DNA of 64,000 bases. It comes from Phycisphaerae bacterium (lineage in GTDB: Bacteria; Planctomycetota; Phycisphaerae; UBA1845; Fen-1342). Shown in pieces: positions 43,276 to 62,133 of the stretch; position 1 is the stretch's first letter, and each line of letters starts with the position of its first letter. Below the pieces are notes generated by a model that was given only the letters and a program-made list of their open reading frames with translations, was not told the origin of the DNA and did not search any database. The translations under genes and the position numbers were made by a program. The stretch lies in assembly GCA_050115495.1 (NCBI GenBank), contig JASFQK010000031.1:1-64000 (forward strand), written 5' to 3'.

Positions 43276-44058
43276 TTAGCGACGACGCAGAGCCAGACCG
43301 GCAAGGCCGAGCAGCAGCAGGCTGGCCGGCTCAGGAACACAGGTGATCGTCAGGTCGGCGACCGACGAGGTGCCCCAGAAGTCGTTGTTCAGGATGGGGT
43401 CATCGCCAGCACCGAACTGGACATAGTCGTCGCCAGGGCCGCCAGTCGCACTGGCAATGCCGCCGGGGCCGACCGCGAAGAACAGCTCGTAGGTCTCGCC
43501 CGCACAGGGATCCGGGCAGGTGAAGGTGACTTCGCCGAGCAGGTAGTAGCCGTAGATCCAGTCGTTGTCCATGACCATCATCGTGTCGAGATCACTGCCG
43601 AGGGCCAGGAACTTGGACGAGGGGACACCAACGCCAACGCCATTGACGTGGTTGTCTTCGAACGGCAGGTAGTAGTCACCGATCGGGTTGACGCCGGGCT
43701 GCGCGGTGTCGGGGAACGGGGAGTTGTCATCCACACTGAGACCGCCGTTCCAGCGATAACGCCAGGCAGCGGGGGCCGTGACAGGGTTCATGTCCGGGTT
43801 GTAGTACATGCCCTCGTAGTCGGCACCGACAAGACCGAGGTCCACACCGAGCCAGGAGTCGCCCATCGAGACGTCAACCTTGGCCCACATGTAGTACGTG
43901 ACGGACTCGCCGCACTGCAGCTCGATGCTGGGATTCGTCACGGCAGGCGCGACGTCGAGCGCATCCGTATCGGAGAAGAACACGCCGAGCGTTGCCTGGG
44001 CGTTGGCGGCGCCACAGACGAAGCCCAAGCAGACCAACGCACACAGAAGCTTCCTCAT
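43276..44058 (-). CDS. PEP-CTERM sorting-domain surface protein (paralog A)
   Basis: Signal peptide MRKLL..AANA; C-terminal VPEPASLLLLGLAGLALRRR; AAAGGA SD. Confidence 0.9.
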   Translation of the reverse strand: MRKLLCALVCLGFVCGAANAQATLGVFFSDTDALDVAPAVTNPSIELQCGESVTYYMWAKVDVSMGDSWLGVDLGLVGADYEGMYYNPDMNPVTAPAAWRYRWNGGLSVDDNSPFPDTAQPGVNPIGDYYLPFEDNHVNGVGVGVPSSKFLALGSDLDTMMVMDNDWIYGYYLLGEVTFTCPDPCAGETYELFFAVGPGGIASATGGPGDDYVQFGAGDDPILNNDFWGTSSVADLTITCVPEPASLLLLGLAGLALRRR

Positions 44059-44166
44059 GGTAATTCCTTTCTCCCTCAAAAAAAGAGCCGTTGCAACCTG
44101 GAGGACTCCTCCTCCAAACCGTTTCTAACGAGGTGGGTGCCGCTCACCCTCACTCTCACGAAGCCG
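44059..44166 (-). promoter_or_regulatory. Conserved structured 5' leader (copy A)
   Basis: Stems GGGTG/CACCC, CGTT/AACG and TGGAG/CTCCA, plus CTCTTTTT..GAGGGAGAAAGGAA, shared with 45272-45378. Confidence 0.55.
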
Positions 44167-44482: not shown

Positions 44483-45271
44483 TTAGCGGCGACGCAGGGC
44501 GAGGCCCGCGATGCCGAGCAGCAGCAGGCTGGCCGGCTCAGGGACGCAGTTGATCGTCAGGTCGGCGACCGACGAGGTTCCCCAGTAGTCGTCGTTCAGG
44601 ATCGGGTCATCGCCAACGCCAAACTGGATGCTGTCGTCGCCAGGGCCGCCAGTCGCACTGGCAATGCCGCCGGGGCCAACGGCCAGGAAGATCTCGTACG
44701 ACTCGCCACCGCACGGATCCGGGCAGGTGAAGGTGGCTTCGCCGAGCAGGTAGTAGCCGTAGATCCAGTCGTTGTCCATGACCATCATCGTGTCGAGGTC
44801 ACTGCCGAGAGCCAGGAACTTGGACGAGGGGACGCCAACGCCAACGCCGTTGACGTGGTTGTCTTCGAACGGCAGGTAGTAGTCGCCGATCGGGTTGACG
44901 CCGGGCTGCGCGGTGTCGGGGAACTCGGAGTTGTCATCCACACTGAGACCGCCGTTCCAGCGATAACGCCAGGCAGCGGGGGCCGTGACAGGGTTCATGT
45001 CCGGGTTGTAGTACATGCCCTCGAAACCGATGGTGTCCACGCCGGAGATACCGAGGTCGACACCCAGCCACGAGTCACCCATCGAGACGTCAACCTTCGC
45101 CCAGATGTACACGGTCTCGGACTCACCGCAGTTCAGCGTGAGCTCCGGGTTCGAGGCGGTCGGCGCCGCGGCGAGATCGTCCGTGGTCGAGAAGAACAGG
45201 CCGAGCTCCGTGGCATTCGCCATCGTCGCAGCCAGGCCAACACACAGAATCGCACAAGCAAGCTTCTTCAT
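44483..45271 (-). CDS. PEP-CTERM sorting-domain surface protein (paralog B)
   Basis: Signal peptide MKKLA..MANA; C-terminal VPEPASLLLLGIAGLALRRR; core nearly identical to paralog A. Confidence 0.9.
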   Translation of the reverse strand: MKKLACAILCVGLAATMANATELGLFFSTTDDLAAAPTASNPELTLNCGESETVYIWAKVDVSMGDSWLGVDLGISGVDTIGFEGMYYNPDMNPVTAPAAWRYRWNGGLSVDDNSEFPDTAQPGVNPIGDYYLPFEDNHVNGVGVGVPSSKFLALGSDLDTMMVMDNDWIYGYYLLGEATFTCPDPCGGESYEIFLAVGPGGIASATGGPGDDSIQFGVGDDPILNDDYWGTSSVADLTINCVPEPASLLLLGIAGLALRRR

Positions 45272-45589: not shown

Positions 45590-46372
45590 TCAGTCCAAAT
45601 CAAACAGGCTGTTGTCGTCGTCGCGGCCGAACCAGCCCACGTCGCAGGTTCCCGGATCGCCGGGGTACAAGCCACTGCGCCAGGTGAACGTCATCTGCCG
45701 GCGATCGACGTGCCCGTCGGCCCACGCTACGTTCGCCCATCGACGATGTCGGAAATGAACGGACGGATCGGCCCGCGTCCCATACACCGGGAAGTACCGT
45801 GGCTCGGCGAAGCTGTACTCCACGGGTTCGCCGCTGACGAAGGCGCTGTCCGCGAACATCAACGTCGCCTCCGGATGACGGACGGCGTCAACGCGTGCGC
45901 CATGCAGGTCGGTGACGACGCGACACAGCCCGGAGGCGTCACTGTCCAGCTCACGGCCCAGGTAGGCCAGGTTGTACCCGTACCCCCCGCAGTTGCGCTC
46001 GAAGCCTCGCGTGCCGTCCGAGGGCCGGCCGCCAGGCAGGCCCGGACAGGCCCGGATGCGGCCTTCGGGCCCCAAATATGGTGTTAAGGGACCGCCGGCG
46101 CTGGTGAATGGCTCGCTCGGCCGCTGTCGCGTGCCGTGCCAACGATGCAGATTGCGGGTCACGAAGTTGGCCGCGCCAGGGCAGTAACGATACTCATGGT
46201 CGCCGGCGTAGAGGGCGTTGGCCAGGGCGATCTCGCGGAGGTGGGTGCCGCACACGGCCGTCTGCGCCTGCGCCCGGGCGTGTTGCAGCCCGGGCAGCAG
46301 AACGCTCAGCAGTACCGCCAGGATGGCGACGACGACCAGCAGCTCCACGAGACTGAATGCCCGCCGGCGCAC
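45590..46372 (-). CDS. Prepilin-type N-terminal cleavage/methylation protein with H-X9-DG C-terminal motif (DUF1559-like)
   Basis: RRRAFSLVELLVVVAILAVLLSVLLPGL..AR..A....C..HL..I; C-terminal FRHRRWANVAWADGHV; GGAGG SD. Confidence 0.9.
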   Translation of the reverse strand: MRRRAFSLVELLVVVAILAVLLSVLLPGLQHARAQAQTAVCGTHLREIALANALYAGDHEYRYCPGAANFVTRNLHRWHGTRQRPSEPFTSAGGPLTPYLGPEGRIRACPGLPGGRPSDGTRGFERNCGGYGYNLAYLGRELDSDASGLCRVVTDLHGARVDAVRHPEATLMFADSAFVSGEPVEYSFAEPRYFPVYGTRADPSVHFRHRRWANVAWADGHVDRRQMTFTWRSGLYPGDPGTCDVGWFGRDDDNSLFDLD

Positions 46373-46376
46373 GCGT

Positions 46377-47546
46377 CTATCCTCCGGTCAACAGGCCCAC
46401 GAACGGGCTGATATCGAAGTTGTTCACCAGTCCATCGCCGTTGACGTCGGCACGCAGGCGCCAGCAACCCGGCTGGGCGGCAGCGTAGCCCTCGGGGTTG
46501 GTCAGCGCCAGCACGAACGGACCGATGTCGAAATTGTTGAGACGGCCGTCGCAGTTGACGTCGCCGCGTGGCGCCGCATCCGCGACCGCCCCGATTTCCG
46601 TCGAGAGTTCGCCGAAGAACAAGGATACGTAGTTCACACCGGTGGTCACACGGATGAAGTCGAACCCATCGAGGCCGGCCGGAGATCCGCTGACCGGGTC
46701 GATGGCCCAGGCGATGTCGAAGCCGTCGCCGCCGCCGGCGCCGGGTGTGATGCCCACCGCGAGCGGATCATCGGGCATGGTGTAGAACGACTCCGGCAGC
46801 AGGTCTGGCTCGTCCACGATGTTGTCGCCGTCGATGTCGCCGCGCGACAGCACGGGCGTGAAGTCGGCATAACCGAAGATGCCCTCTTCCTCCGCGTACG
46901 GACCGGCCGGGTTCTCGACGACGTCGTGGTCGAAGATCTCGCTCGGCAGGCGATAGCCAGCGGTGTCCCACACGCCGCTGTAACCGGGCGGAATCCAGTT
47001 GGGGTACGGATTGCTCGGCGGCGGCGGCAGTGGTGGGTAGGTCGGGTCTTCGATGTCGTCGTCCCACGTCTGCACGTACCACTGCCCACCGGGATCGACG
47101 ACGTGCGAACCCGGCACGAGATACCAGGGATCGTCGGCCACGCCGTTGCCGTTAGCGTCGCGGCTGATCTCGATCACGCCGCACTCGGCCCAGTGCCGGT
47201 TTGGATCGTCGCCCACCCAGTGGGGATTGCCGAAGACGATGGCATCGACGCCGAACGCGTTCGCCGGATTATCGAGCACGGTGTGGTCGAAGCGCAGCGT
47301 GATGGATCCGCCGAAACCGCCGAGGCTGACGAGCTTGCTGTTGTCGGGGTCGTACGTGCCGCCGCCGATCGGTGCACCGAGGGCGCGGGCCGGATCGTTG
47401 AACTCGGGCACGTTGGCAAACTGCCCGGGTGCCGGCTGGAAGCTCATCACCGCCGTCGCGAACGGGTCTTCGGGCCGAGCCGCACCGACGAACACGACGG
47501 CCAGCGCGACCGCCGCCAATCGTGGTAAGTAACTGTGTCTGGTCAT
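46377..47546 (-). CDS. Secreted cell-surface protein (BtuH-like, by recalled motifs) with dockerin-like C-terminus
   Basis: Signal peptide; PAPGQFAN, VSLGGFGGSITLRFDH, IVFGN, E.GVIEIS.D.NGNG..DD.WY, GDGFDIAWA, DFIRV.TG; C-terminal GDVNCDG..NNFDIGPFV..ADVNGDG.VNNFDISPFV. Confidence 0.75.
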   Translation of the reverse strand: MTRHSYLPRLAAVALAVVFVGAARPEDPFATAVMSFQPAPGQFANVPEFNDPARALGAPIGGGTYDPDNSKLVSLGGFGGSITLRFDHTVLDNPANAFGVDAIVFGNPHWVGDDPNRHWAECGVIEISRDANGNGVADDPWYLVPGSHVVDPGGQWYVQTWDDDIEDPTYPPLPPPPSNPYPNWIPPGYSGVWDTAGYRLPSEIFDHDVVENPAGPYAEEEGIFGYADFTPVLSRGDIDGDNIVDEPDLLPESFYTMPDDPLAVGITPGAGGGDGFDIAWAIDPVSGSPAGLDGFDFIRVTTGVNYVSLFFGELSTEIGAVADAAPRGDVNCDGRLNNFDIGPFVLALTNPEGYAAAQPGCWRLRADVNGDGLVNNFDISPFVGLLTGG

Positions 47547-47624
47547 GTTGCGCGTCTCCAGGTGGCCCGCGGCGAACGGCAGCCCCCTCCGTGGAGCAGC
47601 CGTCCGCGTCTGCGGGCCGGTGGC

Positions 47625-48719
47625 CTAGCGGCGAGCGCCGCGACCCAGAGCCAACGCCGCGGCCAGGGCAAGCAGCGCTGCCGATGCGGGCTCCGGAACC
47701 ACGTACGTGTAGACCACGTTTCCCTGGCGTACGTACAGCTCGCCGGTGACGTGATTGGCCACGACGTCGTAGAGGCTGCCGGCCGTCGGGTCGGGGTCCA
47801 GTCGGCAGACCTGCTGCGGATCGAGCGGATCGACCGGCCCGCCACCGCCAAGGGCATCCGCCAGCGCCACCTGCCGGATGAGCGCCGCGTACTCGAAGTC
47901 ACCGCCGGTCGAGTCTGCCCCACCGACGTGCAGGTTCCCCTCCGCGTCGAAACCGAGCGAGCTCGCCGAGAGAACGTCGGCCACGAGCGTGCCGCCAACC
48001 TCGAAGTCCACGGCGGGACCGGTGCCCTCGAAAGCCGGCAGCCAGTCCGCCGTCGCGAACGCCTTGATCCAGCCGGTGCCGCTGGGACCGGCGGCCGCGA
48101 AACCGTTACCCGTGTACAGGTTGCCGGCGGCGTCGAAGGCGATGCCACCCGAGTAGCCGCCGATGTTGTCGATGAGCATCGGGTTGAGCGGGCTGCCCGG
48201 ATCGCTGGTCGTGTCCAGCGCCGTGACGACGCTCGGCGGGCCGGTGACCCCGCCGGCGCTCATGACCAAATGCGTCCCGTCGATCCAGGCGGCGTCGTAG
48301 TGACGTGCCGAGAACCAGTCGCCAGTCAACCCGGTCAGGTCGAAGACGCCAACCTCGTAGTTGCTCCAGGAGCTGCCGCCGTTGTTGCCGACGGCAACCT
48401 TCATCCCGTCCGGAGAGACACGCACAAACGCGGGGCCGGCGTAGACCGGGTCCGGCATGTCGGCGTCGGGCAATACGCCGACCGAATTGAAGCTGCGCGA
48501 CAGCGGCGCCGTCTCGACGAGAACCTCGGCGCCCGAAACTGTGATCAACCGTCCATCCCCCAGCACGTCGAACTCACCGCCGGTCGTCGGGGTCGGCAAT
48601 ACGAACGATCCGCTAAGCGTGTAGTCCGCGAAGGCATCGGCCCAGACCGGTGCGGCCGCCGCACAAAGGACCACCACCACAGACAACAGACTCCTGCTCA
48701 GTCCTCTTCCTTCTCTCAC
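47625..48719 (-). CDS. PEP-CTERM surface protein, probable beta-propeller
   Basis: AAGGAGG SD then GTG 48719; signal peptide ..APVWA; blade-like GIAFDAAGNLYTG, SLGFDAEGNLHVG, VSPDG.KVAVG; C-terminal VPEPASAALLALAAALALGRGARR. Confidence 0.85.
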   Translation of the reverse strand: MREGRGLSRSLLSVVVVLCAAAAPVWADAFADYTLSGSFVLPTPTTGGEFDVLGDGRLITVSGAEVLVETAPLSRSFNSVGVLPDADMPDPVYAGPAFVRVSPDGMKVAVGNNGGSSWSNYEVGVFDLTGLTGDWFSARHYDAAWIDGTHLVMSAGGVTGPPSVVTALDTTSDPGSPLNPMLIDNIGGYSGGIAFDAAGNLYTGNGFAAAGPSGTGWIKAFATADWLPAFEGTGPAVDFEVGGTLVADVLSASSLGFDAEGNLHVGGADSTGGDFEYAALIRQVALADALGGGGPVDPLDPQQVCRLDPDPTAGSLYDVVANHVTGELYVRQGNVVYTYVVPEPASAALLALAAALALGRGARR

Positions 48720-48974
48720 AATGTTCCTCCTTACAAACCTCACCCAGGCCCGCTCCCTGGAGCGGCCTAGGCCGGTTGCCTGCGGCGAGCAGCGGTAAGT
48801 GCGTCAGCCGAGCTCACCACGCCGGAAGGAACGGCACGGCCAGACCGGCAGCACGCCGCGCGCGAACACATCGCCCGCGCAAACGTTCGCCGCTCTGGCA
48901 CCTGCGAAAGGAATCAGACAGGCTGGCGTGGGCACGGAACCTTCCCGCGAAGGCAACCCGAGACAGATGGGTCT

Positions 48975-49172
48975 TGCTGGCAGGTCTTCTGACTCCCGGG
49001 CTCGCAACTCGCCGAAAGCGGCGTGTCGCACCTACTGGCTGCGCCTTCTCAGCCTGCTGTCGCAGGCCAATGACTTGTGCAGTGTTCGTTCCCGGTCACA
49101 GCGGCGGGGCCGTTCCGGACTTGCACCGGATTCCCTATTCTTCCGACCGCTCCGAGCGGCGGACACCAGTGA
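48975..49172 (-). ncRNA. Cobalamin (B12) riboswitch
   Basis: Minus strand: CTGGTG..AATAGGGAATCCGGTGCAAGTCCGGAACGGCCCCGCCGCTGTGACC..GAAGGC..CCCGGGAGTCAGAAGACCTGCCAG (B12 box). Confidence 0.95.
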
Positions 49173-49182
49173 CCAATTATGG

Positions 49183-49211
49183 TTTGTAGCTCGAACCGGC
49201 CGGCGCGTCAA
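49183..49211 (-). promoter_or_regulatory. Sigma70-type promoter candidate for the riboswitch transcript
   Basis: TTGACG-N17-TACAAA about 10 nt upstream of the aptamer. Confidence 0.5.
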
Positions 49212-51094: not shown

Positions 51095-51832
51095 TCACGG
51101 ACGCAGGCGGGCGATCTCGCCGGCGCTGACGCGGTGCTGCCTGTCGCCGGCGTCGAGGAGGAGGCTGCCGTCGTCTGCCAGTCCTGCGATGCGGCCCACG
51201 ACGGGCGGCCCGCCGGTGATGAGCTGCGCCCGCACCTGCTCGCCGAGCCAGGCGAGCCGGGAGCGAACGTCGGGGAGACAAGCCGCGGGGCCGTCGCGAT
51301 CGTACGCCACCAGAAGCGCTTCGAGCTGCCCCACCGCCGCCGCTAGCACGGCGTCGAGATCCACCGGTCGACCCAGCTCATCCTGAAGCGACGTCGCTGG
51401 GTACAGCAGGTCCGGGCCGAGGTCGGCAGCGGCGAAGTTGCCGTTGAGGCCCACGCCGACGATCGCCGCCGGCTGGTCCGCGGCGAGCTCCATTTGCACG
51501 AGCACACCGGCGACCTTCCGCCCCGCGATCAACACGTCATTGGGCCACTTGATCTGCGGGCGAACGCCGCACGTCTCCTCCAGCGCCAGGGCGATCGCCG
51601 CACCGGCGGCCAGCGGCACGGCCGTGTAGTGCGCCGGCGGCCGCCGGAGGGGCCACGCGACAGTCAACCACAATCCTCCCGGCGGGCTCTGCCAGGGACG
51701 ATCATGACGGCCACGGCCCGCCGTCTGCACCGTGGCGGTGATGAGGAAGGGGTGCGCCTGATCGCTCACCCGCCAGCGGCGGACAGCTTCGAGGTTGGTG
51801 GAATCGATCTCGGTGAGGTGAGCGCGTTGCAC
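51095..51832 (-). CDS. birA: Biotin--protein ligase (no HTH domain)
   Basis: IDSTN, QTAGRGR..R.W.SP.G, IKWPNDV...GRKVAGVL, GVGLN. Confidence 0.93.
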   Translation of the reverse strand: MQRAHLTEIDSTNLEAVRRWRVSDQAHPFLITATVQTAGRGRHDRPWQSPPGGLWLTVAWPLRRPPAHYTAVPLAAGAAIALALEETCGVRPQIKWPNDVLIAGRKVAGVLVQMELAADQPAAIVGVGLNGNFAAADLGPDLLYPATSLQDELGRPVDLDAVLAAAVGQLEALLVAYDRDGPAACLPDVRSRLAWLGEQVRAQLITGGPPVVGRIAGLADDGSLLLDAGDRQHRVSAGEIARLRP

Positions 51833-51852
51833 GAGATCACCTCCACGGGTGG

Positions 51853-53307
51853 TCAGCCTTGCAGGCGGCTCAGCAGCACGCCGGCCGCAACGGCTGAACC
51901 GATCACGCCGGCGACGTTGGGGCCCATGGCCTGCATGAGCACGAAGTTCTGCGGGTCTTCTTCCTGGGCGACGCGTTGCACGACACGGGCGGCCATCGGC
52001 ACCGCCGACACGCCCGCCGCCCCGATCAGCGGATTGACTGGGTCGCGGCTCAGGCGGTTCATGAGCTTGGCCAACAGCACGCCGGCCGCCGTAGCGATGG
52101 CGAAGGCGGCCACACCGAGGATGAAGATCTTGATGGTCTGGGGGGTCAGGAAGTTGCTGGCCTGCGTCTTCGCTCCGACCGTGACGCCGAGCAGGATGGT
52201 GATGATGTCCACGAACGCCGTGCTGGCGGTCTTGGCCAACCGCTCGGTGACGAGGCTTTCGCGCAGCAGGTTACCGAAGAAGAGCATGCCCAGCAGCGGC
52301 AGCGCCCCGTTGGCGATGAACGCCGTCAACAGAAAGCCGACGATGGGGAAGATGATGCGCATCGTCCGCGTAACTTCGCGCGGCGGGGCCATGCGGATGC
52401 GACGTTCGCTCGGTGTCGTCAGCAACCTCATGATCGGCGGCTGGATGACCGGCACGAGCGCCATGTAGCTGTACGCCGCCAGGGCGACGGCTCCGAGCAG
52501 GTCGGGGGCAAGCTGTGTGCAGACGAAGATCGAGGTTGGGCCGTCGGCGCCGCCGATAATGCCGATCGACGCGGCTTGTTCCTCTGTGAAACCAAGCAGC
52601 ATGGCCGCCAGCAACGCGCCGAAGATGCCCACCTGCGCCGCCGCCCCAAGCAGGAGCGTGCGCGGCTGGGCGAGCAGCGGACCGAAGTCGGTCAGCGCGC
52701 CGACGCCAAGGAAGATGAGCGGCGGGAAGAATCCCCACGCGACGCCGCGGAAGAGCCACCAGAAGACGCCCGCCCTCCACGGGTTCTGGGAGTCGAGCGA
52801 AACGATGGACGGATAGCGGTGGTCGGTCGCCGGCGCGAGGGCCAGAATCTGCCGGCCCTGGGGCAGGTCGATGACGCCGGGCTGCGGGATCTCCTGGTTG
52901 TAGACGAGCTTGGCCTCGGGATTGACCATCACGGCGAGGCCGCGCTCGACGAGATCTTTCACCAGGTAGCGACGGGCGGGAAGGTCGCTGTCCGGCGGCG
53001 GTGGGTAGATCTGCTGCCAGGGGCCGACCGTCACGCCGTCGATGGTCACCGAAGTGGCGCCGCTGTAATAGACGAGCGTGTGCTCGTCGACCGGGCCGTC
53101 GTACACGCCGACGCTGAGCGAGCGCACGTCGTAGGGGATGTTGCCGATGAGGATGCCGAAGCCGATGGGCACGAGCAGCAGCGGCTCGAAGCCTTTGCGG
53201 ATCGCCAGGAAGATGAAGCCGAGCCCGATGAGGATCATCACGCCGTTGCCGAGCGTGAATTGCCCGAACCCGGAGTCGCGCAGGTAATTGAGGAACATCT
53301 CCAGCAT
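51853..53307 (-). CDS. mmdB: Sodium ion-translocating decarboxylase beta subunit
   Basis: FEPLLLVPIGFG, PPLIFLGVGALTDFGP, IGIIGGADGPT, AYSYMALVPVIQPP, GAAGVSAVPMAAR, AMGPNVAG. Confidence 0.93.
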   Translation of the reverse strand: MLEMFLNYLRDSGFGQFTLGNGVMILIGLGFIFLAIRKGFEPLLLVPIGFGILIGNIPYDVRSLSVGVYDGPVDEHTLVYYSGATSVTIDGVTVGPWQQIYPPPPDSDLPARRYLVKDLVERGLAVMVNPEAKLVYNQEIPQPGVIDLPQGRQILALAPATDHRYPSIVSLDSQNPWRAGVFWWLFRGVAWGFFPPLIFLGVGALTDFGPLLAQPRTLLLGAAAQVGIFGALLAAMLLGFTEEQAASIGIIGGADGPTSIFVCTQLAPDLLGAVALAAYSYMALVPVIQPPIMRLLTTPSERRIRMAPPREVTRTMRIIFPIVGFLLTAFIANGALPLLGMLFFGNLLRESLVTERLAKTASTAFVDIITILLGVTVGAKTQASNFLTPQTIKIFILGVAAFAIATAAGVLLAKLMNRLSRDPVNPLIGAAGVSAVPMAARVVQRVAQEEDPQNFVLMQAMGPNVAGVIGSAVAAGVLLSRLQG

Positions 53308-53372
53308 GGCGGCCGCTCCTTGGACCGCCGGGACGACGTGTCAGGCACGCGTCCCGGCGCGGCTGCGCGGGC

Positions 53373-53753
53373 TTACTCGAACTCGATCAGCAGATCGCCC
53401 TGCTTCACGGTGGCTCCGACGGTGGCGTGCACGGCCTTGACACGGCCGTCCACGGGTGAAGGGACGTTCGTCTCCATCTTCATCGCGTCGAGCACCAGCA
53501 GCGTCTGGTTTGCCGAGACGGTGTCACCCGCCTTCACGTGGATCTTCAGCACGGTGCCCGGCAGCGGCGACACGCAACGGCTGGCGTCGTGCGCCGTGAC
53601 CGGCGCAGGTGCCTGCGAGCGTACCGGGCGACTTTCGGCCACCGGTGGCGGTGCGGCGACCTTCACCGGTGCCGGCGTTGCCGGTCCGGCGTCGCCGACC
53701 ACCTCGACATCCACTTCGTACGTCTTGCCTTCAACGGTGATGCGCAACTTCAT
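53373..53753 (-). CDS. mmdC: Biotin carboxyl carrier protein (decarboxylase gamma subunit)
   Basis: MKLRITVEGKTYEVDVE, Ala/Pro linker, SPLPG.V, DAMKMET biotinylation motif. Confidence 0.9.
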   Translation of the reverse strand: MKLRITVEGKTYEVDVEVVGDAGPATPAPVKVAAPPPVAESRPVRSQAPAPVTAHDASRCVSPLPGTVLKIHVKAGDTVSANQTLLVLDAMKMETNVPSPVDGRVKAVHATVGATVKQGDLLIEFE

Positions 53754-53758
53754 GGCGG

Positions 53759-54154
53759 TCACTTTCGGAAACGGTGGGAGGATTGAACGGCGATGCGACC
53801 GTGCCCGGTCCAGGACGAGCTTGGATGGCGGACCACGCTGCGCACACGCCGAATGCGTACCCCCGGACCCAGAGCGGCCACGGCGGCCGCGGTGAGAATC
53901 GCGAGCGTGCGGCCATCGACCGGCCCGTCCTCCGCTACGGGCGGATCGGCCGGCGCCGGTGCAGCGGCCACGACAGTCGCCGCGCGGCGCTGAGACAGGA
54001 TCCCCCGCAACAGCTCCAGCCCACCCCACACGAGCACCAGGGCCAGAAAAACGACGGCCACGCCGACGATGGACAGCATCACGCCGTCGAACAGGTTGCC
54101 GTCGGCAGCGGGCGGCGACGCCTCAGCCAGAATACCAAACCACACCGCGAACAT
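53759..54154 (-). CDS. mmdD: OadG/MmdD-family membrane subunit (delta)
   Basis: TM segment GV.VVFLALVLV, 'AILTAAAVA', C-terminal SW...GR; GAAGGA SD before ATG 54154. Confidence 0.8.
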   Translation of the reverse strand: MFAVWFGILAEASPPAADGNLFDGVMLSIVGVAVVFLALVLVWGGLELLRGILSQRRAATVVAAAPAPADPPVAEDGPVDGRTLAILTAAAVAALGPGVRIRRVRSVVRHPSSSWTGHGRIAVQSSHRFRK

Positions 54155-54205
54155 GGACTTATCCTTCTCCGCCGCGGACAAACGTCGCCCGCAGCGGCAA
54201 TGCAC

Positions 54206-55777
54206 TTACAGCGGGATCAGGCCGTGCTTCTTCTCGGGCCGCATCTCGCGCTTGGTTTCGAGCGCTTCGAGCGCCGCCGCGACATAACGCCGCGTGTCGG
54301 CCGGCTCGATGATGTTGTCGATCAGGCGACGGGCGGCGGCCACGTACGGCGTGGCGAACGTCGAGCGGTACAGGTCGATCAGCTCGGCCCGGCGTGCCGC
54401 CGGATCCTCCGCCGCCTTAATCTCCTTGCTGAACACGACGTTCACGGCGCCCTCGGCGCCCATGACGGCGATCTCGGCGCTGGGCCAGGCGGCACAGCGG
54501 TCGGCACCCAGGTCCTTGCCGCACATGGCCAGGTACGCCCCGCCGTACGCCTTGCGCAGGACGATGCTGACCTTGGGCACGGTGGCCGCCGAGTAGGCGA
54601 AGAGCATCTTCGCCCCGTGGCGGATGATGCCGCCGTACTCCTGCTTCACACCCGGCATGAAGCCCGGCACGTCGACGAACGTCACCAGCGGGATGTTGAA
54701 CGCGTTGCAGAAGCGGACGAAGCGGGAGACTTTGTCGGAGCTGTCGATATCCAGCGCGCCGGCCATGACCATCGGCTGGTTGCCGACGATGCCGATCGGC
54801 CGGCCGAGAATCCGCCCGAAGCCGACGATGACGTTCTGGGCGAAGTGCTCCTGCACCTCTAGGAAATCGTGGTTGTCGACGACACGCTGCACGACGTGCC
54901 GCATGTCGAACGCCTTTTTCGGATCGTCGGGGATGATGTGGTTCAGCTCTTCGTCGAGTTCGATCACGCCGTCGTGCTCCAGCCGCGGCGGCGATTCGAG
55001 GTTGTTCGACGGCAGGAAGCCGAGCAGCTTCTTGCAGATCTGGACGGCGTGGCGGTCGTCGTCGGCCACGAAGTGCACGACGCCCGAGTAGCTCATCTGC
55101 GCTTCGGGTCCGCCGAGCTGTTCGGCGGTGACTTCCTCGCCCGTCACCTGCTTGATGACCGCCGGGCCGGTGATGAACATCTGCGCCTGGCGTGTCTGGA
55201 TGATGAAATCGGTCAGCGCCGGGCTGTACGCCGCCCCGCCGGCACACGGCCCGCAGATCAGCGAAACCTGCGGCACCACGCCCGACAGCAGCACGTTGTG
55301 ATAGAAGACGCGGCCGTAGCCGGCGAGACTGTCGATGCCCTCCTGCACGCGGGCCCCGCCCGAGTCGTTGATGAAGATGAACGGGCTGCCGGTCTTCAGA
55401 GAAGCGGCCATCGTCTCGGCGATCTTCTCGGAGTGGACCTGGCCGGCCGCGCCGCCGCTGACAGTGAAGTCCTGACTGGCGAAGTACACGAGACGGCCGT
55501 CAATCGCCCCGACGCCGGTGACAACGCCGTCGGCGGGCAGTTCCTTGCCCTCCAATCCGAAGTGCGTGCAGCGGTGCTGCGCGAACAGGAAGCCTTCCTG
55601 AAAGCTCTCCGGATCGAGCAGCACGTCGATGCGCTCGCGCGCCGTCAGCTTGCCCGCCTGGTGCTGCTTGTCGATGCGGGCCTTACCACCACCCAGTTCA
55701 TACCGGGCCCGTCGCGTGCGCAGCTCCTCGATCTTCTCACGATTGCTGAGCACGCGCTTCGCGGGAGTTTCGGACAT
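54206..55777 (-). CDS. mmdA: Methylmalonyl-CoA decarboxylase alpha / acyl-CoA carboxyltransferase subunit
   Basis: GKLTARERI, DGVVTG, QDFTV.GG, DSGGARVQEG, GPCAGGAAYSPALTD, DVPGFMPG..QE.GGIIRHGAK, KKHGLIPL. Confidence 0.9.
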   Translation of the reverse strand: MSETPAKRVLSNREKIEELRTRRARYELGGGKARIDKQHQAGKLTARERIDVLLDPESFQEGFLFAQHRCTHFGLEGKELPADGVVTGVGAIDGRLVYFASQDFTVSGGAAGQVHSEKIAETMAASLKTGSPFIFINDSGGARVQEGIDSLAGYGRVFYHNVLLSGVVPQVSLICGPCAGGAAYSPALTDFIIQTRQAQMFITGPAVIKQVTGEEVTAEQLGGPEAQMSYSGVVHFVADDDRHAVQICKKLLGFLPSNNLESPPRLEHDGVIELDEELNHIIPDDPKKAFDMRHVVQRVVDNHDFLEVQEHFAQNVIVGFGRILGRPIGIVGNQPMVMAGALDIDSSDKVSRFVRFCNAFNIPLVTFVDVPGFMPGVKQEYGGIIRHGAKMLFAYSAATVPKVSIVLRKAYGGAYLAMCGKDLGADRCAAWPSAEIAVMGAEGAVNVVFSKEIKAAEDPAARRAELIDLYRSTFATPYVAAARRLIDNIIEPADTRRYVAAALEALETKREMRPEKKHGLIPL

Positions 55778-55809
55778 GTCGCAAGGCTCCTTGCCGGACG
55801 GACCGCGCG

Positions 55810-56229
55810 TCAGGAATGCCGAGGCGCCGGCTCGCAGAGTTCGGTCAGCACGCCGCCGGTGGCCTTCGGATGCAGGAACGCGATGCGCGATTCATGCGCC
55901 CCAGGGCGCGGTTCTTCGTCAATCAGACGCACGCCGGCGGCTTTGAGCTCGGCCAGGCGCGCCGACAGATCGGACACCGAATAGGCAATGTGGTGGACGC
56001 CCTCGCCGCGCTTTTCGAGGAACGCCGCCACCGGGCTGGTCGCCTCCGTCGGCTCGAGCAGCTCCAGGCGCACCGGTCCGACGGTGAAGAACGCCACGCG
56101 CACCTTCTGCCCGGGCACCGTCTCCTCGCCCTCGTAGTGGGCTCCGAGAACCTTCTCGTAGAACGACCTCGCCTCCGTAATGCTGTGGACGGCGATGCCG
56201 ACGTGACTTACGCCTTCTACCGGCTTCAT
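55810..56229 (-). CDS. mce: Methylmalonyl-CoA epimerase
   Basis: HVGIAV, Q.VRVAF, ELLEP, FLEKRGEGVHHIA, FLHPK.TGGVL.EL. Confidence 0.93.
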   Translation of the reverse strand: MKPVEGVSHVGIAVHSITEARSFYEKVLGAHYEGEETVPGQKVRVAFFTVGPVRLELLEPTEATSPVAAFLEKRGEGVHHIAYSVSDLSARLAELKAAGVRLIDEEPRPGAHESRIAFLHPKATGGVLTELCEPAPRHS

Positions 56230-56293
56230 CGAACGGCTCCGTTTGCGAGCGCCGCCGCCACACCGGCGGCCGGCAGTTCAGGCCCTAACGCTA

Positions 56294-56309
56294 TGCAAGA
56301 TGCATGCCT
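56294..56309 (-). promoter_or_regulatory. Sigma54 promoter candidate of the mce-mmd operon
   Basis: Minus strand AGGCATGCATCTTGCA, with GG and GC at -24/-12 spacing, about 65 nt before mce. Confidence 0.5.
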
Positions 56310-56600
56310 CTTCCATCGTGAAGAGCGAACAAGCGGCCGCACACCGACGGCCATCGGCGATTGCGGACAGCCAATATGCGTGAATGGCTCACAACCGGGC
56401 CGTCCGCCGATGTGCCGAGAACGGCGGTGGCTGGAACAGAATGTGCTTCCGGGGTGTGAGGCCCCCCTGTCGCCGAGGAGCTGTCCCCGCCGCAGCGGGC
56501 CGTGACCGTGGGGCGGTGCGCGATTTCGAGCGCGCCCTGCGTGAGGAGCGCAACGCCGGAGCACCGACCGCCCCCCGAACAAGATTCACAGGAACGCCTG

Positions 56601-58727
56601 ATGTTGCCACCGCAACCCGACCTGGCTGAAGACTTCCCACCTGTACCCTACGAAAACTGGCGACAACTCGTCGAAGAGGACCTGAACGGCGCCCCCTTTG
56701 AGCGCCGCCTCGTCACCCACACGTACGAGGGCGTCCAGATCCAGCCGGTCTACAGCGCCCATCACTGGCCCTCCGCCGGCGACCCCAGCGGCCTGCCCGG
56801 CCTGCCGCCCTACACCCGCGGCGGCCAGCCCCTCGGCGGCGCCCGGCACGGCTGGCTGATCGAGCAGGAGCATACCTACCCCTGCCCGCAGAAAGCCAAC
56901 GCCGCCATCCTCGACGATCTCGCCCACGGGGTGAACTCGCTCATCCTTCGCTTCGACCGCGCCGCTCGCACCGGCCTCGATCCCGGCGACGATCGCGCCG
57001 CCGACCTCGTCGGCCGCGACGGCATCATGATCTACAACGTCGACGACCTCGACCTGGTCCTCAAGGACGTCCGGCCCGAGCTGATCAACATCTCGCTCGA
57101 AGCCGGCACCGGCTTCCGCCTGGCGGCCGCCCTGCTCGTGGCGCTCTGGCAGCGGCGCGGGGTCAGCTTCGCCGAGGCCCGCGGCGCGTTCAACGCTGAC
57201 CCGCTGGCGACGCTGGTCCGCGCCGGCTGGCTGCCAGTCCCGCTCGACGAAGCCATCCTGCGGATGGTCGACCTGGCCCGCTGGACGGATGAAAACCTGC
57301 CGAACGTGACGTCCGTCCGTGTCCGCACCGGCACGTACCACAACGCCGGCGCCACCGTCGTTCAGGACCTCGCCTTCTCGATGGCCACGGGCATCGAATA
57401 CCTGCGGGCCCTCACCGCCGGCGGCATGAGCGTTGGCGCCGCGGCCCGGCAGATTCTCTTCAGCTACAACGTCGGCTGCCACTTCTTCCTGGCGTCCGCC
57501 AAGCTCCGCGCCGCCCGCAAGCTCTGGGCCCGCGTGGTCGAAGCCTGTGGCGGCGACGCCGACGCGCAAACCATGCGCATGAGCGTCCGCACGAGCCGGC
57601 GGGTCATGACCCGTCGCGACCCGTGGGTGAACATGCTGCGGAACACGGTGTGCTGCTTCGCCGGAGCCATCGCCGGCGCCGACGCCGTCAACTCGCAGCC
57701 CTTCGACGCCGCCCTCGGCCTGCCCGACCGCTTCAGCCGCCGCATCGCCCGCAACACGCAGATCATCCTCCAGGAAGAAGCCCACCTGCACCGAGCCATC
57801 GACCCCGCCGGCGGAAGCTGGTTCCTCGAGAACCTCACTGACGAATTGGCGGTCAAGGCCTGGGAGCTGCTTCAGGTCATCGAGGTGCTCGGCGGCATGA
57901 AGCAGGCGGTCCTCAGCGGCTGGATCGCCCGGCACATTGATGAGGCCTTCACGCCGCGGCGTAAGAACCTCGCCAAGCGCAAGGACCCCATCACCGGCGT
58001 GAGCGAATTCCCCAACCTCGCCGAGCAGCCCCTCGCCCGCGAGCAGCTCGACTACGTCGCCCTGCGCGACGCCGCGGTCCAGCGCCACGGCACTCGGCCG
58101 ACGACCGATGCCGGCCAGCGACTGCACCAGCTCATTGCCGACCGCGGCGCTTCGGGCGACGCAGTGATGCCGGCCCTGATCGACGCGGCCAAGGCGGGCA
58201 CCACCATCGGCGAGATTTACTCCGCCCTGACGCAGGATGCCGAAACGGTCCACATTACGCCGCTGTCGGCCCACCGCTTCGCCGAGGCCTTCGAGGCCCT
58301 GCGCGACGCGAGCGATGCGTACCTGGCGAAGACCGGGGCCCGCCCCAAGGTCTTCCTGGCCAACATGGGCCCCATCGCCCACCACACGGCGCGAGCCACG
58401 TACGCCCGCAACTTCTTCCAGGCCGGCGGCTTCGATGTGATCACCAACGACGGCTTCGCCCACGCCGACACCGCAGCCGAAGCCTGCCGGGAAAGCGGCG
58501 CGCACATCGCCGTGATCTGCTCTTCCGATACGCTGTACGAAACGGTCGTCGCCCAGGTCGCTCCGGCGCTCAAGGCCGCCGGCGCCCGCACGGTCGTCCT
58601 CGCCGGCCAGCCCGGCAACAAGGAGGCCGCCTACCAGGAGGCGGGGGTCGATCGCTTCATCTACATACGCTGCGACGTCCTGCAAACCCTGCAAGAGTTG
58701 CTGCGCGAGGAGGGAGTGCTGTCATGA
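56601..58727 (+). CDS. mutA: Methylmalonyl-CoA mutase small (non-catalytic) subunit
   Basis: [50 protein letters not shown]; lacks DxHxxG. Confidence 0.88.
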
Positions 58728-60931
58728 GCAACATCCCCAACTTCTCCAAAGTGGACTTCGCCGGCGGCGCCAAAGCCCAGGGCACGCTCGAAGACTGGCA
58801 GACGCGGGCCGCCGCGGCCGCGGGCACGGCCCTCGACCAACTCGCCTGGCACACGCCGGAAGGCATCGACGTCAAGCCGCTGTACACCGCCGCCGACCTC
58901 GATGGGCTCGAGCATCTGCACACGATGCCCGGTCTGCCGCCGTTCCTGCGGGGGCCGTACCCGACGATGTACGTCATGCGGCCGTGGACGGTGCGGCAGT
59001 ACGCCGGCTTCTCGACGGCTGAAGAGTCGAACGCGTTCTATCGCCGCAATCTCACCGCCGGCCAAAAGGGCCTGAGCATCGCCTTCGACCTGGCGACGCA
59101 CCGCGGTTACGACTCGGACCATCCGCGGGTGATGGGCGATGTGGGCATGGCCGGCGTGGCCATCGACAGCATCGAGGACATGCGCATCCTGTTCGACGGC
59201 ATTCCGCTCGACAAGATGAGCGTCTCCATGACCATGAACGGCGCCGTGCTGCCGGTGATGGCCCTCTACATCCTCGCCGCCGAGGAGCAGGGCGTCCGGC
59301 CGGAGCAGTTGGCCGGGACGATCCAGAACGACATCCTCAAGGAGTTCATGGTCCGCAACACGTACATCTACCCGCCCGAGCCGAGCATCCGCATCATCGC
59401 GGACATCTTCGCCTACACCAGCCGCCACATGCCGAAGTTCAACAGCATCAGCATCAGCGGCTATCACATGCAGGAGGCGGGAGCGACGGCCGACCTCGAG
59501 CTGGCGTATACGCTGGCCGACGGCCTCCAGTACGTGCGGACGGGCGTGCAGGCCGGGCTCGACGTCGACGCGTTCTGCCCGCGGCTGTCGTTCTTCTGGG
59601 GCATCGGCATGAACTTCTTCATGGAAGTGGCCAAGCTGCGGGCGGCGCGCGTGATCTGGGCGAAGCTCATCCGCCAGTTCAACCCGCAGAACCCGAAGAG
59701 CATGTCGCTGCGCACGCACAGCCAGACGAGCGGCTGGAGCCTGACGGCGCAGGACGTGTACAACAACGTCATCCGCACGTGCATCGAGGCCATGGGCGCC
59801 ACGCAGGGCCACACGCAGAGCCTACACACCAACGCCCTCGACGAAGCCCTCGCCCTGCCGACCGATTTCTCCGCCCGGATCGCCCGCAATACGCAGCTCT
59901 TCCTCCAGCAGGAAACGGACACGTGCTCCGTGGTCGATCCGTGGGGCGGGAGCTACTTCGTCGAGCGGCTGACGCATGAGCTGATCCACCGCGCGTGGGG
60001 CCACCTCCGCGAGATCGAGGAGCTCGGCGGCATGGCCAAGGCCATCGAGGCCGGCATTCCCAAGATGCGCATCGAGGAGGCCGCGGCCCGCACGCAGGCC
60101 CGCATCGACTCCGGCCGGCAGACGGTCGTCGGCGTCAACAAGTATCCGCTCGCCCAGGAAGAGAACGTCGAAGTGCTGAAGGTGGACAACACCTCGGTGC
60201 GCAACGCCCAGGTCACCCGGCTGAAGAAGCTGCGGGCCAACCGTGACGCCGGCCAGGTCGACGCCGCTTTGGCCGCGTTGACGCAGGCCGCCGAGACGGG
60301 CGAAGGGAATCTGCTGGCCCTGGCGATCGATGCGGCGCGGGCCCGGGCCACCGTGGGTGAGATCAGTTACGCACTCGAGCGCATCTACGGCCGCCACCAG
60401 GCGACCTCGCGCACGGTCAGAGGAGTGTACAGCAAAGAGATGGGTGAGAATCAGAGTTCAGTCCAGCGTGTCCGCGAGGCGGTCAACCGCTTCGAAGAAC
60501 GTGAAGGCCGCCGGCCGCGCATGCTCATCGTGAAGATGGGTCAGGACGGGCACGATCGCGGGCAGAAGGTCATCGCCACCGCTTTTGCCGATCTCGGCTT
60601 CGACGTGGACGTCGGCCCGCTGTTCCAGACGCCGGCCGAGAGCGCCCGCCAGGCGGTCGAGAACGACGTGCACGTGGTGGGTGTGAACTCGCTCGCCGCC
60701 GGCCACCTGACGCTGGTGCCGCAGCTTCGCGAGGAGTTGGCCCGCCTCGGCCGTGAGGACATCATGATCGTGGTCGGCGGCGTCATTCCGCCGCAGGACT
60801 ACAACGCGCTCTACGAGGCCGGCGCCGCGGCGATCTTCGGCCCCGGCACGGTCATCAGCAAGGCAGCCATCAAGCTCATGAACGAGCTCGAAGACCGCCT
60901 TGGCCTGACCGAGCCGGAACCGTCCCGCTGA
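58724..60931 (+). CDS. mutB: Methylmalonyl-CoA mutase large subunit (adenosylcobalamin-dependent)
   Basis: [52 protein letters not shown]12-binding motif; ATGA overlap with mutA. Confidence 0.96.
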
Positions 60932-61065
60932 CGACTTCGCGATACGCCGCCGTCAGGCTTCGGTTAAGATAGACACGGTCCGCGGTGCGGCCGTCCGGCG
61001 TACGTGTTGCTGTTTCGGCCCGCGTGTGAGTCGGGCCGGCGGTCCGCAGTGTAGGCAAACCCGCG

Positions 61066-62133
61066 ATGTCCAGCGTTCCCGCCCAGACGCCCGAGCCGCG
61101 ACCCGTCCCGCCGACGCCGCCGCGCCCCGTCGCCCGCCGACGCCAGCTTTCGCTCGACGAGTACGCCGACGGTGTCCGCGCCGGCGATCGGGCCGTCCTC
61201 GCCCGAGCCATCACCCTCATCGAATCGCATAGCCCGCAGCACATCGACCTCGCCCAGCAACTGCTTACGCGCCTGATGCCCTTCACCGGCGGCGCCTGCC
61301 GGCTGGGCATCACAGGCGTTCCCGGCGTCGGCAAGAGCACGTTCATCGAGAGCTTCGGCCTGCACCTGACCAGCGAGGGACACCGCGTCGCCGTCCTGGC
61401 TATCGATCCGTCCAGCGGCATCTCCGGCGGCAGCATCCTCGGCGATAAGACGCGCATGGCCCAGCTTGCGATCGACCCGAACGCCTTTATCCGCCCGTCG
61501 CCCAGTGCCGGCACGCTCGGCGGCGTCGCCAGCAAGACGCGCGAGACGATGCTCGCCTGCGAGGCGGCGGGTTTCGACGTTGTGCTCATCGAGACGGTCG
61601 GCGTCGGGCAATCCGAGACGGTCGTCGCCGACATGACCGACTGCTTCCTGGCGTTGATGCTGCCGGGGGCGGGCGACGAGCTGCAGGGCATCAAGCGAGG
61701 CCTGCTCGAGTTCGCCGACCTGATCGCAGTGAACAAGGCCGACGGCGACAACGTGCCCGCCGCCGAGCGGGCCGCCGCCGAGTACCGCAGTGCTCTGCAC
61801 TTCATGCAGCCGCGTCTGGCCGACTGGACGCCGCCGGTGGTGACGTGCAGCGCCCGCCGGAACACGGGCCTGTGCGAGATCTGGGAGCAGGTGACCGCGT
61901 ATCGCCAACTCCTGGAGCAAACCGGCGTTCTCCAGGCTCGCCGGCGCGAGCAGACGTTGCGCTGGATGTGGACGATGGTGGACGAGCAACTTCGCGCCAA
62001 CCTCAAGGCTCATCCCGAGGTGAAGGCGACACTGCCCCGTCTCGAAGAAGAAGTCCGCGCCGGCCGGCTTCCGCCGACTCTCGGCGCCCGCACGTTGCTT
62101 AGGGCGTTTGGCGTTCTGAAGTCGGATGGGTAG
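61066..62133 (+). CDS. meaB: Methylmalonyl-CoA mutase-associated GTPase
   Basis: LARAITLIES, GITGVPGVGKST, DPSS..SGGSILGDKTRM, ETVGVGQSE, GDELQGIKRG, NKAD. Confidence 0.95.
   Translation: MSSVPAQTPEPRPVPPTPPRPVARRRQLSLDEYADGVRAGDRAVLARAITLIESHSPQHIDLAQQLLTRLMPFTGGACRLGITGVPGVGKSTFIESFGLHLTSEGHRVAVLAIDPSSGISGGSILGDKTRMAQLAIDPNAFIRPSPSAGTLGGVASKTRETMLACEAAGFDVVLIETVGVGQSETVVADMTDCFLALMLPGAGDELQGIKRGLLEFADLIAVNKADGDNVPAAERAAAEYRSALHFMQPRLADWTPPVVTCSARRNTGLCEIWEQVTAYRQLLEQTGVLQARRREQTLRWMWTMVDEQLRANLKAHPEVKATLPRLEEEVRAGRLPPTLGARTLLRAFGVLKSDG

Follow-up and report, generated by a model that had tools for sequence, protein, structure and literature searches.

A cobalamin riboswitch-led cassette of surface proteins and a subfamily-specific pilin as a candidate B12-acquisition system in Phycisphaerae

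Introduction

What does a cobalamin riboswitch control when the genes behind it encode surface proteins and a pilin, and neither a receptor nor a transporter for the vitamin? This question is raised by an operon in a 64,000-nucleotide (nt) stretch, hereafter the window, of contig JASFQK010000031.1 from a Phycisphaerae bacterium (assembly GCA_050115495.1), in which a riboswitch on the minus strand heads genes for a predicted PEP-CTERM propeller (gene 1), a BtuH-type protein (gene 2) and a type IV prepilin-like protein (gene 3). To our knowledge, BtuB is the only outer-membrane B12 importer known for Gram-negative bacteria. The original prediction, made from the sequence of the window, held that the two surface proteins scavenge corrinoids and that the pilin is a cargo-specific subunit for their import. 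Our analysis suggests that the operon is very probably a B12-acquisition cassette, and we assign a probability of roughly 0.55 to the reading in which its three exported proteins scavenge B12 and rely on a dedicated pilin, not BtuB, for import. The elements concerned are as follows (lengths in amino acids, aa).

48962..49185, minus strand: cobalamin riboswitch aptamer RF00174 (Rfam, 103.8 bits, full model)
48940..48953, minus strand: hairpin, likely the P13/L13 kissing-loop partner (read in the sequence; assignment from riboswitch architecture)
47625..48719, minus strand (reading frame open from 48743): gene 1, secreted predicted six-bladed beta-propeller with PEP-CTERM tail, 364 aa (sequence, fold prediction, 214 homologues)
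46377..47546, minus strand: gene 2, secreted homologue of the BtuH-type B12-binding domain (about 26-326) with dockerin-like C-terminal tail, 389 aa (8BLW_B, 7BIZ_A)
45590..46372, minus strand: gene 3, type IV prepilin-like H-X9-DG protein of a B12-riboswitch-specific subfamily, 260 aa (families, profile, fold)

A pilin of one subfamily is conserved behind cobalamin riboswitches

The riboswitch was recovered with the Rfam model RF00174 (gathering score 31.5, E 6.6e-25), where it spans model positions 1-189 and is the sole Rfam match of the window; the original prediction had placed it at 48975-49172 on the same strand. A CCCGC loop from 49108 and the complementary GCGGG loop of the hairpin at 48953-48940 can be read in the sequence, and we take the pair to be the L5-L13 kissing loop of the architecture typical of these riboswitches. 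The three open reading frames (ORFs) behind it, at 47625-48743, 46377-47546 and 45590-46372, share its strand and are separated by gaps of 78 and 4 nt, as first described. No sigma-70 promoter was found, nor a convincing terminator in the leader or directly after gene 3, and folding of the leader (z -2.85) revealed no switch. One RNA run held 10% of the sequence words, with exact pieces of 65, 151 and 248 nt, of which one covers the riboswitch and another falls within gene 1; these are assembled contigs and cannot show transcription or co-transcription. The window was also said to lack any TonB-dependent receptor (TBDR), BtuFCD or B12-synthesis gene, and this was borne out, because all matches in the genome to TBDR, periplasmic-binding-protein and FecCD genes fall on other contigs; cobQ and cobU had no match anywhere in the genome. 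ECF transporters, also reported as absent from the window, were not searched for by family.

We surveyed 60 relatives from the same family or order, 56 of which carry a cobalamin riboswitch (64 matches in 63 regions). A pilin of one family lies behind the riboswitch, on the same strand, in 53 of the 63 regions and in 52 of the 56 riboswitch-bearing genomes; the other ten regions comprise six at contig edges, one with a TBDR, one with btuR and two with single surface genes. Between switch and pilin the genes vary, and include close and distant BtuH types, three kinds of propeller, DUF4465/BtuJ, unnamed PEP-CTERM domains or, at one locus (L146), nothing. The pilin therefore appears as the core of the cassette and the surface binders as interchangeable. 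The trio first proposed as a unit is not constant among relatives; the linkage of riboswitch and pilin, the absence of which would have counted against the proposal, is strongly conserved. At L174, L136, L137, L148 and L154, unnamed surface domains (F6, F22, F12, F10) replace BtuH/BtuJ ahead of the pilin, and the main domains of these proteins have no Pfam family.

A survey anchored on gene 2, covering the best 80 of 562 loci, found a riboswitch by profile in 60 of the 63 loci with at least 2.2 kb upstream and by Rfam in one more, the pilin in 60 of the 64 loci with room downstream, and riboswitch, propeller and pilin together in 39 of the 51 loci with room on both sides. The four loci without a pilin are titled Syntrophaceae, Deltaproteobacteria, Planctomycetia and Omnitrophota, and the named homologues and neighbouring loci are nearly all from Phycisphaerae. 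One record titled Alphaproteobacteria (L023) bears a Phycisphaerae-type cassette and is possibly mislabelled.

Gene 3 had been called a prepilin and H-X9-DG protein, and both descriptions hold. Its prepilin signal exceeds the cut-offs (PF07963 28.1 bits, TIGR02532 25.1 bits), and the H-X9-DG motif is present, with H204, D214 and H216 invariant in 51 of 51 aligned members, as are two cysteines, a Y-x-x-N motif and E5. The signal is of class III, with F1, E5 and a hydrophobic helix, and Ala replaces Gly at -1; the ribosome-binding site overlaps the end of gene 2. In the predicted structure (pLDDT 91) an N-terminal helix of about 50 residues (3-53) precedes a head of about 200 residues, and the top 18 rows of a fold search were all pilins or pseudopilins, at weak scores (6XXD Z 5.8, EpsG Z 5.0, ComP Z 4.5). 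Searched within the full model and not folded alone, the head had no Foldseek match at E<=0.001. Look-alikes of the head in a protein atlas fall mostly in Verrucomicrobiota, and we regard them as a lead only.

A profile of the head domain, built without this genome, sets the cassette pilins apart from their paralogues. The genome has 42 pilin-like ORFs, of which the two led by riboswitches score 241.6 and 167.1 bits and the other 40 at most 33.4; only these two belong to the B12-riboswitch subfamily. Scores among the relatives are bimodal, with 57 matches at 125 bits or more and the next at 63 (the profile was trained on most of them), and a riboswitch precedes 52 of the 57; of the rest, one has its riboswitch truncated by a contig end, three are at contig breaks and one has none. 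On a quick tree of 108 rows, from which L151 and L152 (no regex motif) and the truncated L135 were left out, the B12 label needs 2 changes, compared with a shuffled mean of 30.2, a result compatible with a single origin or with more than one. Neither PF07596 nor TIGR04294 matches gene 3 itself; its riboswitch-led paralogue on contig C10 reaches PF07596 at 23.5 against a cut-off of 23.3, and TIGR04294 matches 10 of the 51 members at E<=0.001. As judged from sequence, gene 3 thus represents an H-X9-DG pilin subfamily that is tied to one nutrient signal and distinct from PF07596/TIGR04294.

The pilin is enriched in Planctomycetota genomes without TonB-dependent receptors

Our phylum sample comprised 150 Planctomycetota genomes, none used in profile training and 142 with a cobalamin riboswitch. 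The pilin head was found in 26 of them at E<=1e-10 and in 24, from 11 families, at E<=1e-18; the two weak ones were set aside. A riboswitch lies at most 4 kb upstream in 21 of the 24 strong carriers, one of the remainder being at a contig edge and two having none. A TBDR barrel was found in 112 genomes of this sample, of which 5 are carriers; it is absent from 19 of 24 carriers and from 19 of the 126 others (nominal p 1e-9, overstated by kinship because the carriers come from 11 families). Among this genome and its 60 relatives, 18 of 61 have any TBDR, and 43 of the 60 relatives have none. TIGR01779 at E<=1e-75 matches only 14 of 151 genomes and is too strict a measure of BtuB presence. We also inspected 60 riboswitch regions, chosen among the matches listed, from 58 genomes that have no strong pilin match; none contained a pilin of this or any other subfamily, and 21 contained a BtuB-like receptor, a representative of which has its highest score on the BtuB model. 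Because the group that carries it is mostly without the usual outer-membrane receptor, the pilin probably signals a route of B12 entry not yet described.

Several arrangements in the sample differ from that of the window. At L192 a cobalamin riboswitch lies on either side of the pilin gene, and the second one heads a BtuH-like gene. At L184, L185, L187 and L188 the pilin comes first and is followed by a small cysteine-rich lipoprotein-like gene, with DUF6580 and/or diphthamide-synthase-like genes next at three of the four. Elsewhere in Planctomycetota, cobalamin riboswitches head a YVTN-type propeller at 11 loci (L206, L213, L222 and eight more) and unnamed secreted proteins at nine (L207, L211, L227 and six more) and two (L235, L246); these are further candidate B12 binders.

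Gene 2 encodes a BtuH-type protein and gene 1 a predicted propeller

The only significant solved relatives of gene 2 are 8BLW_B (E 8.8e-19) and 7BIZ_A (E 3e-13) from the single sequence; with a profile of 105 homologues these improve to 9.4e-32 and, over positions 23-317, 1.5e-22. We take 8BLW_B to be the BtuG-BtuH fusion of PMC13616437. According to the available parts of the same source, 7BIZ is BtuH2 with bound cyanocobalamin, and BtuH is described there from gut Bacteroidota only. The cobalamin contacts and metal ligands of BtuH2, as listed in passages of PMC8941943 and PMC13616437, were mapped with chain and protein numbering taken to differ by 100. BtuH2 Q333, F334, N399, E406, S582 and E584 align with Q42, F43, N107, E121, S315 and E317 of gene 2, and D522 corresponds to D228 by the GY-x-D motif only. 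The nucleotide-loop and Na/Ca site residues are kept (five by alignment, D228 by motif) and hardly vary among the 105 homologues, with N107, E121 and S315 in all, E317 in 104, Q42 in 103 and D or E at 228 in all. The corrin contact F401 is H in gene 2 and F or Y in 66 of the 105. Gene 2 is thus a homologue of the BtuH B12-binding domain that is predicted to bind B12, and its type is, by homology, a further member of the known BtuH family beyond gut Bacteroidota.

The signal region of gene 2 contains no cysteine and so no lipobox. Its C-terminal tail had been described as dockerin-like; it gives weak matches to three solved dockerins, and PF00404, at 16.4 bits, stays below its cut-off. Rough regex counts over the whole genome gave 116 PEP-CTERM-like and 167 dockerin-like C-termini, and given the latter number, such tails may serve more generally in protein sorting or anchoring here.

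The most likely start of gene 1 is the GTG at 48719, which follows the strong ribosome-binding site AAGGAGGA. A signal peptide, PEP motif, hydrophobic helix and basic tail are visible in its sequence, and the PEP-CTERM models score marginally below cut-off (PF07589 16.2 versus 20.7; TIGR02595 15.5 versus 16); no other family in the Pfam and TIGRFAM models matched. The predicted structure is a beta-propeller (pLDDT 96) with six-bladed NHL/SMP-30/Pizza6 folds as its best matches (Z 22-23, 12-17% identity). The description of gene 1 as a PEP-CTERM propeller therefore agrees with the visible tail and the predicted fold and falls just short by family models. Its identification as the seven-bladed BtuG found no backing, with no useful sequence match in the Protein Data Bank (PDB) and no BtuG among the rows listed in three fold searches; matches in the protein atlas are only to generic NHL/lactonase-like clusters with low recognition. 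Gene 1 precedes gene 2 in 53 of the 63 loci with room upstream, and the two types share one open frame at P0065, L010, L015, L047 and L131. Corrinoid scavenging, first attributed to both surface proteins, is supported for gene 2 by BtuH homology and kept site residues, and the propeller has no direct support of this kind.

The genome has a predicted need for B12 and scattered transport genes

The genome (5.97 Mb, 92% complete) carries four cobalamin riboswitches. Besides the one in the window, another leads a second cassette (C10:17568-21501, L005), in which a PEP-CTERM protein with distant resemblance to gene 2 (hhalign probability 80%) is accompanied by a dockerin-tailed PQQ-type propeller and by a prepilin that falls in another subclade of the cassette-pilin subfamily and is 32% identical to gene 3. 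The other two riboswitches (C22:53640 and C47:39626) head genes that read as anaerobic ribonucleotide reductase with its activase and as MetE, which on that reading would be B12-independent isoenzymes. Methylmalonyl-CoA mutase and MetH are also encoded, and most of the 60 close relatives have B12 enzymes as well; cobQ exceeded its cut-off in 1 of the 61 genomes.

A genome-wide search for btuB and btuFCD gave a divided answer. BtuB was not found behind a riboswitch, but a BtuFCD-type ABC transporter is present elsewhere in scattered form, with a binding protein and ATPase on C45, a binding protein on C17 and a permease on C52, all assigned at the level of transporter class. The sole TBDR gene (C11, L180:3604-9064) is TOL_0244-like and stands between binding-protein-like and histidine-kinase-like genes, an arrangement that resembles a sensing cassette. 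It was rejected as BtuB, having no riboswitch, 87 bits on TIGR01779 against a cut-off of 600, and the histidine-kinase-like neighbour. Five secretins and five PilT-family ATPases exceed their cut-offs, 14 T2SSE-family ATPases are present, and an exosortase (PF09721, 168 bits) lies on C7.

A pilus-based import model and its alternatives

The data bear directly on riboswitch identity, homology and gene linkage, and from these we infer all later steps. Low B12 would switch the operon on, as the RF00174 match suggests. At the cell surface, the BtuH-type protein would bind the cobamide through its two-metal nucleotide-loop site, and the PEP-CTERM propeller is predicted to act there as a relay or scaffold. 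A prepilin peptidase would cut the pilin, which would join a type IV pilus or pseudopilus assembled by proteins encoded at other loci; the pilin head would take the cobamide, and retraction via a secretin would carry it to the periplasm, where the unlinked BtuF/BtuC/BtuD-type transporter could finish uptake. We chose pilus import because passage of the outer membrane is unexplained and the constant, B12-specific gene at the position of btuB is the pilin. The cargo-specific import role first proposed for gene 3 is thereby favoured by its B12-specific subfamily and by its enrichment in genomes without TBDRs, and the import step itself stays conjectural. A broader generalization is tentative, and we hold it at somewhat short of even odds: Phycisphaerae and several other Planctomycetota lineages would import B12 via a cargo-specific pilin on a retractile type IV filament and not via a TBDR, and H-X9-DG/DUF1559 paralogues would form a library of substrate-specific uptake pilins.

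Several observations weigh against import by the pilin. No assembly gene is linked to the operon, and no recognised B12-binding fold or motif occurs in the head, for which the best structural matches are the weak ones to pilins (Z 5.8, 5.0). The genome contains one TBDR and three MotA/ExbB-family genes; TonB_C had no match in this 92% complete assembly, where a divergent TonB could be missed. In gene 2 the corrin contact W577 is F, a position variable in the family, and the BtuH corrin contacts H476, Y510 and W511 fall in a middle region without reliable alignment. Strong pilins occur without an upstream riboswitch in G054, G115 and G132, and the TBDR contrast rests on 11 families. Both the pilin and a riboswitch-led BtuB-like receptor are present in G015 and G131, so the two are not strictly exclusive. 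Finally, G029 and G032 (97% and 99% complete) have the mutase and no riboswitch, pilin-subfamily or TBDR match; therefore, some other route or need exists.

The pilin-like protein might instead remain anchored in the inner membrane, where it would catch or chaperone B12 in the periplasm and feed the ABC transporter, with entry through an unrelated outer-membrane pore. We consider this unlikely, if still plausible. The hydrophobic N-terminal helix could serve as a membrane anchor, a related Pfam family has the id SBP_bac_10, and at L189, L194 and L203 the pilin lies beside BtuF/FecCD-type genes with no TBDR. However, a BtuF-type protein is already encoded at these three loci, the prepilin signal is retained (E5 in all 51 aligned members), and enrichment in TBDR-less genomes points to an outer-membrane step.

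Alternatively, the pilin could act in export, as a type II secretion pseudopilin specific for the B12-binding proteins encoded with it, which it would move to the surface or display there; we judge this distinctly unlikely. In Phycisphaerae it nearly always lies behind surface-protein genes, and its subtype tracks the partner, with a close BtuH homologue in 11 of 12 relative loci of the window-type clade versus 0 of 26 in the other large clade. Fusions of surface protein and pilin also occur. Among the best 150 of 4432 matches in a representative library, 14 long ones were examined and the junctions of 12 inspected; 11 join a surface domain, membrane anchor, basic linker, prepilin site and pilin, and six of these bear a BtuH-type domain. 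Two of the fusions are found again, with unchanged length, in other members of their clusters. A cut at the prepilin site would presumably free both partners 1:1. Natural polyproteins of this layout with a B12-type pilin include P0276, P0289, P0328, P0342 and P0373. The export role is at odds with the nine loci, eight of them in the phylum sample, at which no other gene separates the pilin from the switch, and with L146, where the pilin is followed by none of the surface-protein families; moreover, the partners have unrelated folds, yet the pilin head stays homologous. A complex prediction for the BtuH-type domain and the pilin (score 0.01, mark 0.32) was uninformative either way.

Very unlikely, in our estimation, is that B12 starvation induces an adhesin pilin for attachment to B12-producing partners or particles, with uptake by another route. 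Minor pilins can act as adhesins (PMC8179133), and attachment is proposed for Akkermansiaceae MUL2 in part of PMC13174399, but an adhesin leaves unexplained both the TBDR contrast and a pilin at the position of btuB beside BtuF/FecCD-type genes. That the pilin is a chance neighbour with no tie to B12, one of dozens of paralogues in a genome with 42 pilin-like ORFs, is scarcely credible: for any given site, a pilin on the same strand within 5 kb is expected with a probability of about 0.02, compared with the observed 52 of 56 genomes, a single subfamily that occurs at both cassettes of this genome, and 21 of 24 carriers from 11 additional families.

Relation to known uptake systems

The closest known counterpart is the Btu relay of Bacteroides thetaiotaomicron (BtuJ, BtuH, BtuG, BtuB, BtuFCD), which, from the relevant parts of PMC8941943 and PMC13616437, shares riboswitch control and a surface BtuH-domain protein with identical metal and nucleotide-loop residues. 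The propeller and BtuH domain are adjacent or fused in both, and sister cassettes of the present operon include DUF4465/BtuJ. Unlike the relay, the operon lacks BtuB and the genome a TonB_C match, PEP-CTERM or dockerin-like tails stand in for the lipobox, the propeller matches six-bladed folds, and the conserved gene is the pilin.

With the DUF1559 (PF07596)/H-X9-DG (TIGR04294) proteins of Planctomycetota, gene 3 shares the prepilin signal, the motif and a large paralogue family; it differs in scoring below both models and in belonging to a subfamily of its own tied to one nutrient signal. Planctopirus limnophila has 68 DUF1559 paralogues of unknown function according to a part of PMC10632474, and DUF1559 is merely mentioned in the available text of PMC5352709. 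A pilin fold together with secretins and PilT-family ATPases in the genome is also reminiscent of type IV pilus uptake with ComP. DNA uptake by type IV pili uses the substrate-specific minor pilin ComP. The system proposed here differs in its vitamin cargo, its riboswitch control, and a head about twice as large without a solved relative.

Pilus-like fibres have been proposed to capture or take up nutrients in bacteria of the Planctomycetes-Verrucomicrobia-Chlamydiae (PVC) group, namely the planctomycete crateriform structures, where dextran binds pili-like fibres and the uptake system is uncharacterised in the sections available (PMC5394234), and Akkermansia MUL2 (part of PMC13174399); the cargo there is polysaccharide or mucin, and these passages name no cargo-specific subunit. 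ZepA, as described in part of PMC10957091, is likewise a PEP-CTERM exoprotein under nutrient-sensing control that supports uptake, but it serves zinc, is Zur-regulated, is proposed to act with TonB-dependent transporters and has no pilin. We found no literature linking a cobalamin riboswitch to a pilin, or BtuH to Planctomycetota, in a search mostly of titles and abstracts that left aside supplements and subscription papers. Neither "pilin" nor "planctomycet" occurs in the main texts of PMC13398666 and PMC3766115, and the passages found in PMC11685898 and PMC11131199 name no pilin-based uptake gene. A B12-dedicated pilin has no known counterpart in the literature searched, and the novelty of the cassette rests on it.

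The operon names a likely candidate for the missing B12 route in relatives that have B12 enzymes, lack a TBDR and almost never carry cobQ. With it, a first member of one of the largest uncharacterised protein families in Planctomycetota would be linked to a ligand, allowing a one-gene, one-vitamin test; planctomycete uptake of large solutes via fibres would become directly testable, and BtuH-type B12 binders would extend past gut Bacteroidota. If the tentative generalization is true, H-X9-DG/DUF1559 paralogues would be the PVC counterpart of TBDR repertoires, and such a library of uptake pilins the missing molecular basis of fibre-mediated uptake in planctomycetes.

Neighbouring genes

A B12-dependent mutase had been noted about 7 kb away, and methylmalonyl-CoA mutase genes do start at 56502, at a distance of 7.3 kb; they are not conserved neighbours of the operon. 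We rejected the mutase as part of the system, as it lies on the opposite strand in its own cluster and, by the listed coordinates of relatives, on other contigs or at a distance. That methylmalonyl-CoA cluster (51095-62133) comprises a biotin ligase, Na+-pumping decarboxylase subunits, a carboxyltransferase, an epimerase, two mutase subunits and MeaB. On the other side, after a 320-nt gap, the operon is followed by two tandem PEP-CTERM genes on the minus strand (43276-44079 and 44483-45271) that share a long near-identical stretch, with a strong terminator downstream of the pair at 43242-43217. Relatives of these tandem genes sit behind the pilin in three genomes of the same genus (L140, L155, L164).

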